In this document: one piece after another, positions 3,653-25,970 of the stretch
Numbering within the stretch: the stretch's first letter is position 1
Layout of the letters: each line of letters starts with the position of its first letter
Origin: a virus
Lineage: Duplodnaviria; Caudoviricetes
IMG/VR virus record: IMGVR_UViG_3300014208_000036
Location: 24,794 to 88,793 of that record
Reading direction: 5' to 3' (one strand)
Length of the DNA stretch: 64,000 nt
Made by a program: the position numbers and the translations under genes
Notes under the pieces: model-generated
Database searches by the model: none
Told to the model about the DNA's origin: nothing
Seen by the model: only the letters and a program-made list of their open reading frames with translations

Positions 3653-3940
3653 ATGATGAGTAAAGAATACAGTACGGTCACCGCCGATGATGGCGTTAAT
3701 TACCGCGAAATTGCGGAAACGATGACATTGCTCGGATTTAAGATGAATCATTCGTCGGCACGCAATAACGTGATTCGAATCATGGAAAAATTTGTAAAAG
3801 CGATCATTGATGAAAAATTGATCGATGATCAGGAAAAAATTACCGCCATCGCTCGATCATCATCATTTCAATCAGCATTGTCCATTATGCTTCAAACGAT
3901 CGAAATGGGCCGACGCGATAAGCGAAAGTCGCATAGGTAG
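3653..3940 (+). CDS. HTH protein resembling sigma region 4.2
   Basis: NYREIAETMTLLGFKMNHSSARNNVIRIMEKF. Confidence 0.7.
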   Translation: MMSKEYSTVTADDGVNYREIAETMTLLGFKMNHSSARNNVIRIMEKFVKAIIDEKLIDDQEKITAIARSSSFQSALSIMLQTIEMGRRDKRKSHR

Positions 3941-3944
3941 AAAC

Positions 3945-4370
3945 ATGAAAATTAAGATGAAAAATCAACCAAGACTTCGACTTGCTGATTTGTTACGACG
4001 CAGAAAAATGTCATTGACACGATTTATGTCCGAATTTGGCATTACCACGTACGCGGAATTGGTCGATAAATCAACGCGTATCGGTGTTGTTGCTCCAGCA
4101 CAGCATGAATTTGATGCTTTAGGATTGGAGGTTGTGAACGATCCAATGAACGGTGTTATCGTTGTTGGTCCACAGGAATCGCCAGATGACGAGTGTCCTC
4201 CACCCGGCTGGCAACCGAGCGAGGAAGATCTTTCTCGAATGGAGAGCGCTCCCATGTACGATCCAGATGCACACATGGGTGGTGAACAGGAAGAAATTGC
4301 CGGCAAACAAATATTGAGCGAATTGAAGAAGAAATCTTCAAGAAAATCAAAGAAGGGTTCCGATGTCTGA
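3945..4370 (+). CDS. Hypothetical protein (possible N-terminal HTH, acidic middle, basic tail)
   Basis: ATG 3945 in the 3825..4370 frame. Confidence 0.7.
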   Translation: MKIKMKNQPRLRLADLLRRRKMSLTRFMSEFGITTYAELVDKSTRIGVVAPAQHEFDALGLEVVNDPMNGVIVVGPQESPDDECPPPGWQPSEEDLSRMESAPMYDPDAHMGGEQEEIAGKQILSELKKKSSRKSKKGSDV

Positions 4371-15436: not shown

Positions 15437-16875
15437 GGCGTGTACGACGTTACCACGTGGACATTCCGCGACAACGGGACCACGCTCGAGTGTGTCTCTA
15501 GGCAAGTTCGATCGGCGATGACACCAGCCGATGCAACGGGCGCGGCCGTGTGGCTATCGGCGCGCACGCAGGTATCGGTTTCGTCATGGGAGGACCAGGT
15601 CGGGGCTAACGACGCTGCGCAGGCTACGGCCGGCAATCAGCCCACGTCGACGACCTACCACGGCTCGCCGTGCCTCACGTTCGACGGATCTAACGACTAC
15701 ATGTCCAACCCGGTCAGCATGGCGGACGGGGCGAAGTGGCTAGCCGTGTCGTTCAAGCTGAACGCTGTACCTGGCGCGTCGTCGTTCAAGAGCCTCGTTC
15801 GCATGCTTGGGAGTTCAGGCAAATTCGTTGAATTGCTGGCAATGAACTTCGGCGGATACAAGTCGCTCTCGTTCCTTGCTGATTTCTCGGCGGCGGGCGG
15901 GTCTGCCGTTGGCGTGGACCTCCCGCTGGACCTGGCCCCTCATGTCGTGATTGTGCAGTATCTCGGCGGCACGAACACGAACCCAGATCAATACCATCTT
16001 TGGGTTGATGGCACATGGAGAACGCCTCGGGCTAGCTCTACGATCAACGCAGAGGCGAGCGCCATCGGTGCCATTGGCGGGCGCGCCACGAGCGTGCCGG
16101 CCACGAGTTCCAACGCGTCAGTGTCGATGTTCGACGTCAGCGCCGGACTCGGCACGCTCACGCATCGCGACGCGGATAGGATCGCCGCGCAACTACTGCG
16201 AGGACAGGGCCGCAGATCCACACTCGGCCCGCAGATCGTGTGTGACGGCAACAGCCTTACATACGGGTTCGGCGCGGGCTACCTGGATGCCAGCGGGTAT
16301 CTGAACGGCTACCCATACCAACTCGCAACGACGAAGCTTGGCGGCGAGTCTCGATGGAACCTGGTGAACCTCGGGGTTAACGGCCAGACTACGGCGCAAA
16401 TGGTAACGGACTTCGACTCTCAGGTCGCCCCCCTTTACAATCCGCTCCGACCTCGCAACGTGCTCGTGTGCTGGGAGATCGGGAACCACATATACGGAGG
16501 GGCTACGGCGGACGACGCAATGGGCTCCGTCATCGACTATTGCGAGCGCGGGCGCAGGACTGGCTTCGAGGTACTCGTCGCCAACTGTTCCGCGCGTAGC
16601 GATATTACGGCAGGTGTCGAGACCATTCGGACCACCGTCAATACGTACCTCTCCGCCACGTGGTCGTCGTTCGCGGATGGGCTAATCGACTTCGATGGGG
16701 ATGCTCGATTGGTGACGCCATTGACCGATGGTGTGCATTTCGACGCGACTCAATATGGGTATGTGGCCGAGGACGTGCACACTGTGCTCGCTCGCATGCT
16801 CGGGAAAGCATACGTGCCGGCATGACCCAGCGCCAGCCCCCGCAGCTCATCGGCCTCGGCCCTGACTCGACTCCA
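15135..16875. other. GC-rich horizontally acquired segment
   Basis: Abrupt by-eye shift to GC-rich sequence within ORF 14639; ends in truncated ORF start ATG 16822. Confidence 0.75.
15440..16825 (+). CDS. LamG/lectin-like + SGNH hydrolase fibre module
   Basis: LTFDGSNDYM; SGNH blocks DGNSLT, NLGVNG, EIGN, DGVH; in frame with upstream ORF. Confidence 0.85.
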   Translation: MYDVTTWTFRDNGTTLECVSRQVRSAMTPADATGAAVWLSARTQVSVSSWEDQVGANDAAQATAGNQPTSTTYHGSPCLTFDGSNDYMSNPVSMADGAKWLAVSFKLNAVPGASSFKSLVRMLGSSGKFVELLAMNFGGYKSLSFLADFSAAGGSAVGVDLPLDLAPHVVIVQYLGGTNTNPDQYHLWVDGTWRTPRASSTINAEASAIGAIGGRATSVPATSSNASVSMFDVSAGLGTLTHRDADRIAAQLLRGQGRRSTLGPQIVCDGNSLTYGFGAGYLDASGYLNGYPYQLATTKLGGESRWNLVNLGVNGQTTAQMVTDFDSQVAPLYNPLRPRNVLVCWEIGNHIYGGATADDAMGSVIDYCERGRRTGFEVLVANCSARSDITAGVETIRTTVNTYLSATWSSFADGLIDFDGDARLVTPLTDGVHFDATQYGYVAEDVHTVLARMLGKAYVPA

Positions 16876-18599: not shown

Positions 18600-18683
18600 A
18601 AGATCATGGCGGAATAGGCATACGCTGTCCATTTAAACTGGACTGTGCGCAAGCATGTGTTGGTTCGAATCCAACTGATAGAG
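18600..18683 (+). pseudogene. tRNA-Leu(UAA) pseudogene (acceptor stem only 4 bp)
   Basis: Intact D, GTCCA-TTTAAAC-TGGAC, V and T arms; AAGATCA/TGATAGA mispaired at top. Confidence 0.65.
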
Positions 18684-21385: not shown

Positions 21386-21464
21386 GCCCCGGTATCGGAC
21401 GGGTCTTCTAAGCCTGAGCACCGTAGTTGGATCGACGGGGGTTCGAATCCCTCCCGGGGTGCCA
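21386..21464 (+). tRNA. D-armless tRNA-Arg(UCU)-like RNA with long variable region
   Basis: GCCCCGG/CCGGGGT G CCA, 7-nt linker TATCGGA, CGGGT-CTTCTAA-GCCTG, 20-nt V region, GGGGG-TTCGAAT-CCCTC. Confidence 0.75.
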
Positions 21465-22137: not shown

Positions 22138-22418
22138 GTAATGCACAGCGACCGCAGTTGAATTTTTCGGGTTCCGCAAGAATTATTTTCATGTATGACA
22201 TTGTCAAAAATGATTTTGAGGCGGCAATGCGTGATCTCGACCTGGTTATGATCACATCGATCAAGTCGATGAAGTTTGTTACAACGGATGCTGTTGTCAA
22301 GTTTATCAACGACCTTGACAAAGGTCGGCAAATCGTTGAAGCAGCGATAATTCAGAAACGTGATGTAGAGTTATTCGTTGATGTACGTGGTTCTGCACCT
22401 TTAGCTCAGTGGATTTAG
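22134..22418 (+). CDS. Hypothetical protein (3' end overlaps tRNA-Arg)
   Basis: ATGA overlap with previous ORF. Confidence 0.55.
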   Translation: MSNAQRPQLNFSGSARIIFMYDIVKNDFEAAMRDLDLVMITSIKSMKFVTTDAVVKFINDLDKGRQIVEAAIIQKRDVELFVDVRGSAPLAQWI

Positions 22419-22469
22419 AGCGACCGCCTTCGAAGCGGTTGGTCGGGGGTTCGAGTCCTTCAAGGTGCG
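22395..22469 (+). tRNA. tRNA-Arg(UCG)
   Basis: GCACCTT/AAGGTGC, ACCGC-CTTCGAA-GCGGT. Confidence 0.95.
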
Positions 22470-22471
22470 CA

Positions 22472-22630
22472 ATGAAATTATTCATTTTCATGTCAACCTT
22501 GATTCTTTCCTCATGCTACGGAGCGTGGGATATACCGGCGACGCCGCTTCATGATGAATGCTCGAACACAACATCAGTTGGTTACATTTACGTATATCCA
22601 TGTAAGATGAACGGAAATATTCAAAAATGA
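22472..22630 (+). CDS. Small putative lipoprotein
   Basis: MKLFIFMSTLILSSC lipobox-like. Confidence 0.55.
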   Translation: MKLFIFMSTLILSSCYGAWDIPATPLHDECSNTTSVGYIYVYPCKMNGNIQK

Positions 22631-23010
22631 ACGTGAAGCAGGTGATCGTGGTCCGTAAGGATTTAAACATGAGGAAGGGAAAAATCGCCGCGCAGGTTGC
22701 ACACGCAGCGATGAAATTCATCTTTGATGGAAATGTTGCGTCAAAATTGGATGAAATTTACGTAAAGCTATCGAAGGCTGAGACGAAGTGGGCTCGAGAA
22801 GGTTTCACAAAGATCGTTGTTTCCGTTGATTCCGAACAGGAGCTCTTGGACCTTTGCGAATCAGCACGAAGGAACAAGGTTGCATCGTACAAAATTATCG
22901 ATTCAGGTCGAACTGAGTTCGATAACGTTCCTACATTGACATGCGCCTCGTTCGGCCCAGATGATGAAAATCTCTTGGACAAGGTAACCGGGCATTTAAA
23001 GTTACTTTAA
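22627..23010 (+). CDS. pth2: Peptidyl-tRNA hydrolase, PTH2 family
   Basis: KQVIVVRKDLNMRKGKIAAQVAHA, KIVV, IIDSGRTEF, GP, VTGHLKLL. Confidence 0.93.
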   Translation: MNVKQVIVVRKDLNMRKGKIAAQVAHAAMKFIFDGNVASKLDEIYVKLSKAETKWAREGFTKIVVSVDSEQELLDLCESARRNKVASYKIIDSGRTEFDNVPTLTCASFGPDDENLLDKVTGHLKLL

Positions 23011-23041
23011 TTGTGCAAAATTTACGTACGTATGGTATTTC
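23011..23041 (+). promoter_or_regulatory. Phage promoter motif TTGTGCA-N16-GGTATTT
   Basis: Same motif as 5073 and 11224. Confidence 0.55.
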
Positions 23042-23353
23042 ATGATCATGAAGTACGTAATTCTACTCACCGGTCTCTTCATGATTGGTTGCAATGATGA
23101 AAGATTCGTGGATGAATCATACGATCAGCAGGAAACATTTGAAGCGCAGGATCCGCCGAGCTTCGATGATCATGATGAAGTTCTTCATGAATCATGCGTG
23201 ATGACACAAACGCTTGGTGAAGGTGATCTTGTAATTCAGGTTCCTGTTCCTTGTGAACCTGGCCTCATCGATAGGGGTCGACCTTCGGAGAATCCTATCG
23301 ATGACCATGATGAAATCATCAACGATCAGAAAGAATTTACGTTTGACACTTGA
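23042..23353 (+). CDS. Putative acidic lipoprotein
   Basis: MKYVILLTGLFMIGC lipobox. Confidence 0.65.
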   Translation: MIMKYVILLTGLFMIGCNDERFVDESYDQQETFEAQDPPSFDDHDEVLHESCVMTQTLGEGDLVIQVPVPCEPGLIDRGRPSENPIDDHDEIINDQKEFTFDT

Positions 23354-23355
23354 AT

Positions 23356-23441
23356 GGAACAGTGCGCGAGAAGGCTTAAGCGACAAGTTTGCTAAACTTG
23401 AGGGTGTAAAAGCTCCGTGAGTTCGAATCTCACCTGTTCCG
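23356..23441 (+). tRNA. tRNA-Ser(GCU)
   Basis: GGAACAG/CTGTTCC G73, CAAGT-TTGCTAA-ACTTG, V-arm. Confidence 0.93.
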
Positions 23442-23497
23442 CTAAGATCATGCATTATCCATCGTGTAAAAACGATGTATACTTAGAGGTAATTATT

Positions 23498-23584
23498 GGA
23501 AGGTTTGGGCATTGGAAGGCCCACCGGTCTTGAAAACCGACGTAGGTGATGAGCCTACTGCAAGTTCGACTCTTGCACCTTCCG
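23498..23584 (+). tRNA. tRNA-Ser(UGA)
   Basis: GGAAGGT/ACCTTCC G73, CCGGT-CTTGAAA-ACCGA, V-arm. Confidence 0.93.
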
Positions 23585-23585
23585 C

Positions 23586-23674
23586 CGATATTACGTGGCT
23601 GAGTGGATTAAGGCGGCCCGCAAGGGGCGAGGGGCATTGCCCCTCCACGGTGTTCGAATCCCGTCGTAATATCG
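23586..23674 (+). ncRNA. Anticodon-less class II tRNA mimic with 10-bp acceptor stem
   Basis: CGATATTACG/CGTAATATCG, Ser-like D-arm, GCCC-GCAAG-GGGC, V-arm GAGGGGC/GCCCCTC, T-arm TTCGAAT. Confidence 0.8.
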
Positions 23675-23686
23675 ATCTTGAAAAGT

Positions 23687-23878
23687 ATGTGTTACTTTTG
23701 CACAAAAGATGATATATTTAAGGTTGTTGATCATCGATCTCTCGACGTAAGACGAAAGCGAGCGCTTGAGTTGAAGGCACTCCTAGCGAACGTCAAGGAA
23801 GGTGAAACCTGTCAAACTGGTAACACGATCGTTGAAAGAATCAAAGAGGAACAGTACGAACTTTCAAAAAATTTGTGA
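23687..23878 (+). CDS. Hypothetical small protein
   Basis: CxxC N-terminus, coiled-coil-like. Confidence 0.55.
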   Translation: MCYFCTKDDIFKVVDHRSLDVRRKRALELKALLANVKEGETCQTGNTIVERIKEEQYELSKNL

Positions 23879-23921
23879 TGAATAAGATAATTTTCAATAT
23901 CCAAATTTTGGATGTTAAAAT

Positions 23922-23993
23922 GCAATTGTAATTCAGTGGTAGAATGTCGCGTTGCCAACGCGAATGTCGAGGGTTCGAACCCCTCCGATTGCT
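23922..23993 (+). tRNA. tRNA-Gly(GCC)
   Basis: GCAATTG/CGATTGC U73, TCGCG-TTGCCAA-CGCGA. Confidence 0.95.
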
Positions 23994-24005
23994 CAGATAA
24001 AATTC

Positions 24006-24650
24006 ATGTATCATTACGTGTATAAGATCAAAAATCTTGTGAATGGTAAAATTTACGTTGGGAAACATTCAACTAACGATCTTGACGATGGTTACATGGG
24101 TAGTGGAAAACTCATAGCGAAGGCTATCGCTAAGCACGGAATCGAAAATTTTCAAAAAGAAATCATTAAAATGTTTTCCTCCTCTGAGGAGGCTTTTGAA
24201 TTTGAACATAATTTCGTTAATGAAGAGTTCATTATCAGAACTGACACCTATAACTTGATTGTCGGTGGTGATGGATTTTTTGCGATCAATTCAAATGAGA
24301 ATCTTCGTAAAGCGAAAAATAGAAAAGCTGCGTTAGCAATGAACATTATAACTTGGGCTGATCCTGAGTTTAGAAAACGAAAGAGTGCTGCATTAATTGC
24401 ACAAACGAAAAAGTTATTTGCTGAAGGAAAGTTAGTCGCTCCAGACTGGACAGGAAAATTTCATTCTGAAGAATCAAAAGTGAAAATTGGTTTAGCGAAT
24501 TCATTGCATCAACGTGGTGAAAAGAATTCGCAATTTGGAACCATTTGGATTACAAATGATGTTGAAAAATGTTCAAAACGAATCAATAAAAATGAAATAG
24601 ATGATTACGTTAAGTTAGGTTGGCGCCGCGGACGGAAAATGAAGTGGTAG
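24006..24650 (+). mobile_element. Seg-like GIY-YIG homing endonuclease with NUMOD3-like repeats
   Basis: YVYKIKNLVNGKIYVGKHST, YMGSG, YNLIVGG; lies between two tRNA-Gly genes. Confidence 0.9.
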
Positions 24651-24659
24651 TTTAATCAT

Positions 24660-24733
24660 GCGAGATTGGCATATTGGTTGTGCCTCGCCCTTCCAAGGCG
24701 ATCAACGCAGTTCGATTCTGCGATCTCGCTCCA
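24660..24733 (+). tRNA. tRNA-Gly(UCC)
   Basis: GCGAGAT/ATCTCGC TCCA, TCGCC-CTTCCAA-GGCGA. Confidence 0.95.
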
Positions 24734-24738
24734 CGTTT

Positions 24739-24826
24739 GGAAAGATGACCGAGGGGTTTATGGTATCTGTCTCGAAAACAGAAGGGTGTAAAAGCTCCGC
24801 GGGTTCGAATCCCGCTCTTTCCTCCA
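24739..24826 (+). tRNA. tRNA-Ser(CGA), U73
   Basis: GGAAAGA/TCTTTCC, TCTGT-CTCGAAA-ACAGA, V-arm. Confidence 0.92.
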
Positions 24827-24827
24827 T

Positions 24828-24907
24828 GCCATCATGGTGAAATTGGTATACACGCTGCACTCAAAATGCGGTACGAAAGTTTGTGGGTTCGAGTCCCTCT
24901 GATGGCA
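24828..24907 (+). tRNA. tRNA-Leu(CAA)
   Basis: GCCATCA/TGATGGC, CTGCA-CTCAAAA-TGCGG. Confidence 0.92.
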
Positions 24908-24910
24908 CCG

Positions 24911-25210
24911 ATGACGTTTGAAGTAGAGGATCAAAAACGACTTGTGGTTCACTTTAAGAAGGAACCATTCGATGTTTACATCGGTAGGGGTTCCTATTGG
25001 GGAAATCCTTTCTCCGAAAAAAGTGGAACAAAGGCGATCGTAAAGGTTGATTCTAGGGAAGAAGCGATCGCTATGTACCGTGAATGGTTGTTGACGCAAC
25101 CTGACATGCTAGCTCGAGCCCGGCAAGAATTGAAAGGTAAGATCCTTGGGTGTTGGTGCTATCCAAAACCATGTCATGGAGATGTTCTCGTAGAATTGGT
25201 GAATGTGTAA
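24911..25210 (+). CDS. DUF4326 domain protein
   Basis: VYIGRGSYWGNPF, ELKGKILGCWCYPKPCHGDVL. Confidence 0.88.
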   Translation: MTFEVEDQKRLVVHFKKEPFDVYIGRGSYWGNPFSEKSGTKAIVKVDSREEAIAMYREWLLTQPDMLARARQELKGKILGCWCYPKPCHGDVLVELVNV

Positions 25211-25240
25211 AAAGAACGTAGATTTGCTTAATGTAATAAT

Positions 25241-25314
25241 GGGACATTAACTCAATTGGTCAGAGTAGCGGGCTCATAACTCGTTTGTTGAAGGTTCGAG
25301 TCCTTCATGTCCTA
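25241..25314 (+). tRNA. tRNA(CAU), likely Ile2 (or Met)
   Basis: GGGACAT/ATGTCCT, GCGGG-CTCATAA-CTCGT; directly upstream of tilS. Confidence 0.9.
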
Positions 25315-25337
25315 CAAAATTTTGCATTTGTGATAAA

Positions 25338-25970
25338 ATGCTCCATCAATTGATCAACATTCCACGCGACGAACATTTTTATGTTGCTTGTTCTGGAGGC
25401 GTTGATAGCATGGCTATTGCTTCGTTCTACAAATTAGGGAACAAGAAATTTACGTTGGCGTATTTCAATCATGGAACGCAGCAAGCAAATTCCATGGAAA
25501 AACACGTTCTAGAATGGGGCATGAAAAATGATGTTCCCGTTGTTGTGGGTACGATCAATGATGCGAGAACCCTTGGAAAGGGACATTCACCCGAGGAATA
25601 TTTTAGAACCTGCAGGTACGAATGGTTCGATAAATTGCCCGTGAGTAGTATCGTCACCTGTCATCATTTGAACGATGTTGCGGAAACGTGGATTTTTTCC
25701 AACTTGCATGGTGAAGCAAAATTAATTGCCTCCCGGCGTGGACGTTTTTTGCGACCCTTCTTGACGACTCCGAAGGAAAATCTCACCGAGTGGTGTCTAA
25801 GGCACGGTGTTGATTGGGTCGAGGATCGATCAAATGACGACCTGAACATCCCTAGGAACTTGATTCGTCACGTGATCCTGCCTCAGTCGTTGAAAATCAA
25901 TCCAGGCCTGTTGAAGGTTTTGAGGAAAAAATTGTTAGCACGGGAGAAAAACATCAATGGCAACGGATGA
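25338..25970 (+). CDS. tilS: tRNA(Ile)-lysidine synthase (catalytic domain only)
   Basis: PP-loop ACSGGVDS, YFNHG, RYEWF, TCHHLNDVAET, RPFL, RNLIRH. Confidence 0.9.
   Translation: MLHQLINIPRDEHFYVACSGGVDSMAIASFYKLGNKKFTLAYFNHGTQQANSMEKHVLEWGMKNDVPVVVGTINDARTLGKGHSPEEYFRTCRYEWFDKLPVSSIVTCHHLNDVAETWIFSNLHGEAKLIASRRGRFLRPFLTTPKENLTEWCLRHGVDWVEDRSNDDLNIPRNLIRHVILPQSLKINPGLLKVLRKKLLAREKNINGNG

Follow-up and report, generated by a model that had tools for sequence, protein, structure and literature searches.

Why would a phage carry, within a long array of tRNA genes, a sequence that is shaped like a tRNA and has no anticodon? The question is raised by an element at positions 23586–23674 of the 64,000-nt stretch analysed here (the window). 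The window was taken from an 88.8-kb IMG/VR record, with an estimated completeness of 23%, of an uncultured jumbo phage whose DNA comes from groundwater metagenomes. The element is tRNA-shaped, with a class II, Ser-type body. Comparison with related loci indicates that it descends from the resident tRNA-Ser(CGA) gene, is private to its lineage and cannot decode, and that it is most likely a leftover tRNA-shaped RNA, not a proven decoy. Its parts are as follows.

23586–23588, + strand: leader CGA, pairing with the trailer UCG at 23672–23674 and bringing the helix to 10 bp
23589–23595, + strand: acceptor 5′ strand UAUUACG, 7/7 pairs with 23665–23671
23598–23614, + strand: Ser-type D-arm GCU-GAGUGGAUUAA-GGC, hardly different from the Ser(CGA) and Ser(GGA) D-arms of relatives
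23616–23628, + strand: hairpin 1, GCCC-GCAAG-GGGC, in the anticodon-arm position (predicted fold)
23629–23645, + strand: hairpin 2, the 7-bp variable arm GAGGGGC-AUU-GCCCCUC (predicted fold)
23647–23664, + strand: T-arm ACGG-U-G UUCGAAU CCCGU, with a bulged U at 23651
23665–23674, + strand: acceptor 3′ strand CGUAAUA, then the U73 equivalent, C and G

A preliminary description of this DNA, made from the sequence alone, had presented the ten Watson-Crick pairs between 23586–23595 and 23665–23674 as an extended acceptor stem. The pairing is real, but only the inner seven pairs correspond to a tRNA acceptor; the outer three join the trailer UCG to the leader CGA, and the C of this leader doubles as C75 of tRNA-Ser(UGA) on the upstream side. 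Three extra pairs beyond the acceptor compare with none or one in all 32 ARAGORN tRNAs of the window. A 7-bp acceptor stem with every pair formed thus closes the molecule as in a canonical tRNA, the N73 and C74 pattern matches that of the other tRNA genes of the array, and CCA is not encoded. U-G follows the 5′ acceptor strand and leads into the D-arm, which is Ser-like as described, although its stem has three pairs and not four (G10-C25, C11-G24 and the G-U pair U12-G23) around a loop of 11 nt. Two marks of a tRNA-Ser, the C11-G24 pair and a long variable arm, are present.

The two central hairpins had been read correctly: a shortened one of 4 bp with a 5-nt loop in the anticodon position, and a perfect 7-bp variable arm, which resembles that of a Ser(GCU) gene in the related locus L034. 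The first stands where a canonical tRNA has a 5-bp anticodon stem and a 7-nt loop with U33, the anticodon and R37, and in the predicted topology it would occupy the spot where the anticodon arm stacks. Lacking a 7-nt anticodon loop, the element is, as had been proposed, a class II, Ser-derived tRNA shape that is unable to decode. The T-loop UUCGAAU is present as claimed and the D-loop carries its GG (G18 G19), yet the bulged U in the T-stem (ACGG-U-G/CCCGU) contradicts the earlier statement that all stems are well paired. The overall fold is better than chance, only modestly so (MFE −37.6 kcal/mol, z = −2.55, with 3/200 shuffles as good). ARAGORN makes no call at the element, the Rfam tRNA model RF00005 (gathering threshold 29 bits) has no match at 23586–23674 even at E ≤ 10 in a 701-nt search, and neither the ARAGORN tmRNA search, the Rfam tmRNA and YrlA models nor RF01852 (tRNA-Sec) match there.

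The element belongs to a one-strand array of 39 ARAGORN tRNA genes, 32 of them in the window and seven just upstream, interleaved with small ORFs and with genes for tRNA-related enzymes (PTH2, a TilS-like PP-loop protein, an Rnl1-type RNA ligase, NADAR and DUF4326). It lies directly 3′ of tRNA-Ser(UGA), as first reported, and ends 14 nt before a 63-aa ORF. The surrounding features on which its origin can be read are these.

23498–23586, + strand: tRNA-Ser(UGA), the upstream neighbour (ARAGORN), its 3′ end 2–4 nt before the element
23687–23878, + strand: 63-aa ORF, the synteny anchor (tblastn homologues in L003, L007, L008 and L016)
23879–23921, no strand: empty slot, holding tRNA-Ser(GGA) in relatives (gene-order comparison)
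24018–24650, + strand: GIY-YIG (SegE-like, NUMOD3) homing endonuclease gene between two tRNA-Gly genes (Pfam)
24739–24826, + strand: intact tRNA-Ser(CGA) (ARAGORN; Rfam 55.4 bits)

No Ser(GGA) gene is called by ARAGORN anywhere in the 88.8-kb contig. The Gly(GCC) and Gly(UCC) genes, adjacent in relatives, are split in the window by the GIY-YIG gene, and the intact Ser(CGA) stands just after it, flanked by Gly(UCC) and Leu(CAA), a position in which relatives have no tRNA. The endonuclease gene (24018–24650) and the relocated Ser(CGA) (24739–24826) suggest endonuclease-linked reshuffling of the array. Across 22300–25400, sigma-70 promoter-like sites occur at shuffle level and terminator-like sites within about two standard deviations of shuffles, none of either at the element, and the phage's own GTGNAA-N18-TA motif is absent next to it. 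The upstream tRNA-Ser(UGA) at 23498–23586 is itself unusual: it has a long D-stem (UGGGC...GCCCA), on account of which it scores 51.2 bits against the Rfam tRNA-Sec model (gathering threshold 47) with the anticodon UGA, and Ser(CGA) of locus L016 (L016:5786–5875) has nearly the same D-arm. Both may be allo-tRNA-like Ser tRNAs of a kind that has been reported from phage arrays (PMC5389517).

To place the element we used nine related viral and 80 metagenome loci, retrieved via the neighbouring RNA ligase, whose homologues reach 99% identity (the same strain) and then drop to 54%. Despite this protein identity of ∼54%, the tRNA array is syntenic in the relatives, with the usual order Ser(GCU), Ser(UGA), Ser(CGA), Ser(GGA), Gly(GCC), Gly(UCC); where the anchor is present the order reads Ser(UGA), Ser(CGA), 63-aa ORF, Ser(GGA), Gly(GCC). 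All four loci with a homologue of the 63-aa ORF (L003, L007, L008 and L016) have it between Ser(CGA) and Ser(GGA), and its start, ATGTGTTAC, follows Ser(CGA) by 15–20 nt, the same spacing as after the element. Since the element lies between Ser(UGA) and this ORF, it is the positional orthologue of tRNA-Ser(CGA), and we read it as the disabled resident copy of that gene. A remnant of Ser(GGA), suggested by the gene order in L009 and by the best match of the D- and T-arms, was considered and dropped once the 63-aa ORF had anchored the slot. Ser(CGA) and Ser(GGA) are both missing from several relatives.

Relatives thus carry in this slot a Ser(CGA) with a normal 7-nt anticodon loop, an outcome that the preliminary description had itself named as refuting its interpretation. 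A covariance model built from the element and its proposed structure, run over 917 kb of related loci, matched only ordinary tRNA-Ser genes (best, Ser(CGA) of L003, at 40.6 bits), and in every match the middle was 8–11 nt longer, which corresponds to a full-length anticodon arm. No relative in these ∼0.9 Mb of related clusters has the shortened arm, and a scan of close relatives for a T-arm plus acceptor outside ARAGORN calls gave no second class II element with one. Exact-pattern scans of viral contigs for the element core and for the neighbouring Ser(UGA) returned no matches, the neighbouring 103-aa protein has no homologue except itself, cultured phages gave matches of about 26–30% only, and blastn of phage records found generic tRNA pieces only. 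The architecture is restricted to one phage species. Homology, positional orthology and the loss of a needed feature are marks of a tRNA pseudogene, and the element bears all three.

Relative to its Ser(CGA) orthologues the element has kept the D-arm, acceptor pairs 6 and 7 (C-G and G-C) and the T-arm, the last being CACGGGTTCGAATCCCGT of the Ser(GGA) genes in L032 and L034 except for one inserted T. Acceptor pairs 1–5 have changed on both strands and still pair, from G-C G-C A-U A-U G-C to U-A A-U U-A U-A A-U. This removes the acceptor signature of a SerRS substrate (G1/G2/A3, within RGAR at positions 1–4): 52 of the 58 unique Ser tRNA genes of the phage group have RGAR and the element has UAUU, whereas its U73, shared with 27/58, is still compatible. 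It had been suggested that SerRS, which reads the variable arm and elbow, might charge the element; with the signature gone this is doubtful, and serylation appears unlikely. The 17-nt anticodon arm has disappeared, and the 13-nt hairpin in its place has no similarity to anticodon arms. As an exact 10–12-mer, the hairpin core GCCCGCAAGGG occurs only in variable arms, those of eight class II tRNAs (Ser and Leu) of relatives, and C-GNRA-G hairpins are found in the variable region of 24/58 Ser genes. By origin the element looks like a Ser body with two variable-arm-type hairpins and no anticodon arm. Neither hairpin has a donor copy elsewhere in the window. A mobile-element origin was also rejected: the 10-mer CGATATTACG has one other exact copy, at 16600 in a coding region, its count is not above shuffles, and no target-site duplication is seen in the element flanks.

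There are thus three independent departures from a working tRNA-Ser: the missing 7-nt anticodon loop, the T-stem insertion and the loss of RGAR. An intact Ser(CGA) gene lies 1.06 kb downstream, so the old copy is redundant. Other tRNA-like remnants with imperfect stems occur in the arrays of relatives, and tRNA turnover is common in this phage group. Lesions, redundancy, restriction to one species, frequent loss of Ser genes and the presence of other remnants together make it most economical to see in the element a redundant pseudo-tRNA that cannot decode and that tRNA-processing enzymes perhaps still excise, an account to which we assign a probability of about 0.55. In the sequence of events that we envisage, the arrival of an intact Ser(CGA) beside the homing endonuclease gene, in a rearranged part of the array, would have made the resident copy dispensable. 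That copy would then have lost its anticodon arm, with a short, GNRA-like hairpin of variable-arm type taking its place, as well as its acceptor Ser signature, and would have gained the 1-nt insertion in the T-stem. Because the tRNA elbow and the acceptor/T helix remain, the element probably continues to be transcribed as a segment of the tRNA polycistron, from which RNase P and the 3′ processing enzymes would release it. It would have no function in trans and at most a role in cis, parting tRNA-Ser(UGA) from the mRNA that carries the 63-aa ORF. Such a role is not obviously required, as deletion of the element would still leave Ser(UGA) beside the ORF. In E. coli, RNase P suffices to separate the tRNAs of some polycistronic transcripts.

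Two features sit uneasily with plain decay, namely the five compensated acceptor pairs and the neatness of the hairpin. The insertion in the T-stem and the loss of identity point to relaxed constraint, whereas the compensated pairs point the other way, which argues that the fold was either selected or produced by templated mutation. If it was selected, the simplest reason would be that a tRNA shape serves RNase P and the 3′ enzymes in a packed polycistron. The second route would be quasipalindrome correction, in which one strand is copied from the other. The complementarity runs 3 bp past the tRNA borders, which fits templated mutation better than selection on an acceptor stem.

The strongest competitor to a redundant pseudo-tRNA is a trans-acting tRNA mimic under selection, whose class II L-shape, itself incapable of decoding and of being serylated, would bind proteins that recognise the elbow and the long variable arm, and which would serve as a decoy, sponge or inhibitor, for example of a tRNA-targeting toxin or defence enzyme. 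We regard this as rather unlikely. It would account for the perfect pairing of all helices but the T-stem, for the compensated replacement of five acceptor pairs, for an intact L-shape and for an anticodon arm that a stable hairpin has sealed instead of its merely being disrupted, but the T-stem insertion looks like damage, and so does hairpin 1, which shows a 1-nt slip against the usual GCCCC-GCAA-GGGGC variable arm. Nor does the architecture, confined to one phage species, have a homologue in ∼0.9 Mb of related sequence, so that there is no countable covariation. Also in its favour, some neighbouring genes belong to tRNA upkeep (PTH2, the TilS-like PP-loop protein and the Rnl1-type RNA ligase), and a distant relative carries an independent Ser-like tRNA with a sealed arm (L045:7399–7497). 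There are also precedents in the literature, since the MenT3 toxin selects tRNA-Ser by its long variable loop (PMC11162799), irregular Ser-like tRNAs outside translation have been described (PMC5389517) and phage tRNAs counter tRNA-cleaving defences (PMC10264068, PMC11464382).

Conservation between strains bears on the same question. The element sequence is not an assembly artefact, since it is identical in three assemblies: besides the record analysed here, these are a second JGI contig, assembled from a different sample, and a unitig from a run that belongs to another study. In run X2, from the second groundwater study, two co-occurring phage strains differ by 6–7% in the 103-aa and 63-aa ORFs on either side of the element (variants at 23191–23355 and 23733–23823), about half of the variants in the 63-aa ORF falling at third codon positions. 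Over 23356–23732 the strains do not differ, and one common unitig spans 23356–23695. An element unchanged between divergent flanks would favour a selected mimic, but this identity carries little weight, given the patchy divergence of the strains: the spacers within 23356–23695 are invariant too, as is the 1.1-kb stretch at 23824–24915.

A broader form of the mimic proposal makes the element one independent case of a recurring jumbo-phage device, in which a sealed anticodon arm and an erased charging identity would create a selected mimic that occupies or misleads an enzyme, of the host or of a rival, which reads Ser and Leu tRNAs at the elbow and the long variable arm; MenT/AbiEii-type nucleotidyltransferase toxins are candidate targets. 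We think such a device unlikely. A plainly decaying pseudogene, with pairing left by one or two templated mutations and no role even in processing, seems to us distinctly unlikely, although the complementarity that reaches into the flanks, the three separate lesions and the frequent loss of Ser genes in relatives would all suit it. It differs from the redundant pseudo-tRNA that we favour solely in denying a processing role, and the present data fit both.

It is very improbable that the element, incapable of decoding, is an aminoacyl carrier for some non-ribosomal reaction, with SerRS or a different synthetase charging it. The long variable arm, C11-G24 and the U73-type discriminator found in 27/58 Ser genes would suit a SerRS substrate, but G1, G2, A3 and A4 have all been replaced. 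No tRNA-dependent transferase is seen near the element, and no SerRS gene is present in the 88.8-kb fragment, an absence that is uninformative in a record covering ∼23% of the genome. Sensing by T-box or RelA-type systems requires an anticodon paired to a specifier or codon, so the suggestion that the element might act on such sensors fails on its anatomy. A working tRNA with an unusual anticodon loop, or chance hairpins unrelated to tRNA, can draw on the general shape only and is practically dismissed by loops of 5 and 3 nt without a U33-NNN-R37 context in the first case and by homology and synteny with Ser(CGA) in the second.

Among known systems, the processing role proposed here has its closest parallels in mascRNA at MALAT1 and in the E. 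coli valV-valW and leuQPV polycistrons, which are separated by RNase P: in each, a tRNA shape is only what RNase P and the 3′ processing enzymes take hold of. The role of the element is predicted from sequence, in contrast to these cases, and a neighbouring true tRNA could do the same job. The tRNA-like domain of tmRNA and YrlA (Rfam RF02553) likewise mimic the acceptor, T-arm and elbow without an anticodon, but the D-arm and variable arm of the element are plainly of tRNA-Ser type. XacN1-type jumbo phages have been reported to carry a tRNA pseudogene in their array, and that of Xanthomonas phage XacN1 is similarly a tRNA-derived, non-decoding sequence in a large array beside intact isoacceptors (PMC5852040); the element differs in that almost all of its helices are intact and its anticodon arm, beyond being mutated, has given way to a neat hairpin.

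Among irregular allo-tRNA-like and other Ser-like tRNAs, some are inactive in translation and have been proposed to be regulatory RNAs, and (8/4) tRNA-Ser species occur in phage arrays (Mukai et al. 2017, PMC5389517). Such tRNAs share with the element a class II body, a long variable arm, a G73/U73-type discriminator and stem irregularities such as bulged T-stems (PMC5389517), but allo-tRNAs keep a 7-nt anticodon loop, which the element lacks. They also lengthen the acceptor inward at the expense of the T-stem (8/4, 9/3), whereas the element extends outward into its flanks. The inward extension typical of allo-tRNA and tRNA-Sec (8/4, 9/3 or 8/5) is absent here, as U23596 cannot pair with U23664, and so is their long D-stem with a tetraloop, the D-arm of the element having 3 bp and an 11-nt loop. 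Some phage tRNAs get around tRNA-cleaving defences or neutralise them (PMC10264068; for PARIS and T5 tRNA-Lys, PMC11464382). They resemble the element as array genes with altered anticodon loops, which in their case count in defence and counter-defence, but they have a working, readable anticodon and replace cleaved host tRNAs, and the element cannot decode.

Several further aberrant tRNA-like genes were encountered in the window and in related loci. The Ser-like class II tRNA at L045:7399–7497 directly follows Ser(GCU), and its anticodon arm is sealed, with 8 bp below the 5-nt loop UAACU; its fold has z = −4.06, the acceptor GGAAAGA with G73 is intact, and it could be chargeable yet non-decoding. 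It has no second copy in viral contigs, the sole match being its own contig. Within the window, a 68-nt tRNA-like sequence at 1596–1663 has a perfect acceptor and T-arm without a standard anticodon arm, and a Leu(UAA)-like class II sequence at 18603–18679 has a weak acceptor and scores 34.9 bits against the Rfam tRNA model, both uncalled by ARAGORN. Two class I tRNA-like sequences, L025:662–735 and L027:1669–1735, have perfect acceptor stems and aberrant anticodon regions; in the former the T-stem GUGG-U-G/CCCAC is of the same bulged-U design as that of the element, and in the latter CCCGGCAAAGG replaces the anticodon arm. L009:7648–7747 is a tRNA-Ser(GGA) with a 27-nt variable arm and a normal UUGGAAG loop, for which ARAGORN gives no type and a four-base anticodon, and at L005:8770–8861 (also L006:8770–8861) ARAGORN calls a 92-nt tRNA with the anticodon UUA, of the ochre-reading suppressor type.

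A conserved family of rewired tRNAs, with anticodons UCU, CCU, UCG and one UAU, is also missed by ARAGORN. Its members are as follows.

Window 21386–21461: rewired tRNA
L004:3721–3797, 3808–3882 and 3890–3966: rewired tRNAs
L016:919–995 and 3729–3804: rewired tRNAs
L025:7084–7159: rewired tRNA
L034:4005–4081: rewired tRNA
L035:2215–2291: rewired tRNA
L037:540–616 and 2727–2803: rewired tRNAs

After U8-A9 in these genes, the triplets CGG, CCC, GCC, CGA, ACC and CAG covary with CCG, GGG, GGC, UCG, GGU and CUG, respectively, 3′ of the anticodon arm, and the D-loop-like UAACUGGA follows the second triplet. As the covarying triplets flank the anticodon arm, the D-stem encloses that arm and the D-loop lies in the variable position.

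The element offers a worked example of turnover in a phage tRNA array, in which a second isoacceptor appears beside a homing endonuclease gene and the resident copy becomes a tRNA-shaped shell. On a practical level, such shells escape both ARAGORN and the Rfam tRNA model, and can be overlooked altogether or taken for exotic mimics. Should the fold prove to be maintained, the element would be one more of the tRNA-shaped RNAs without decoding ability that are known in growing number from giant phages, and would provide a compact substrate (84–89 nt) for finding enzymes that read the class II body without an anticodon.
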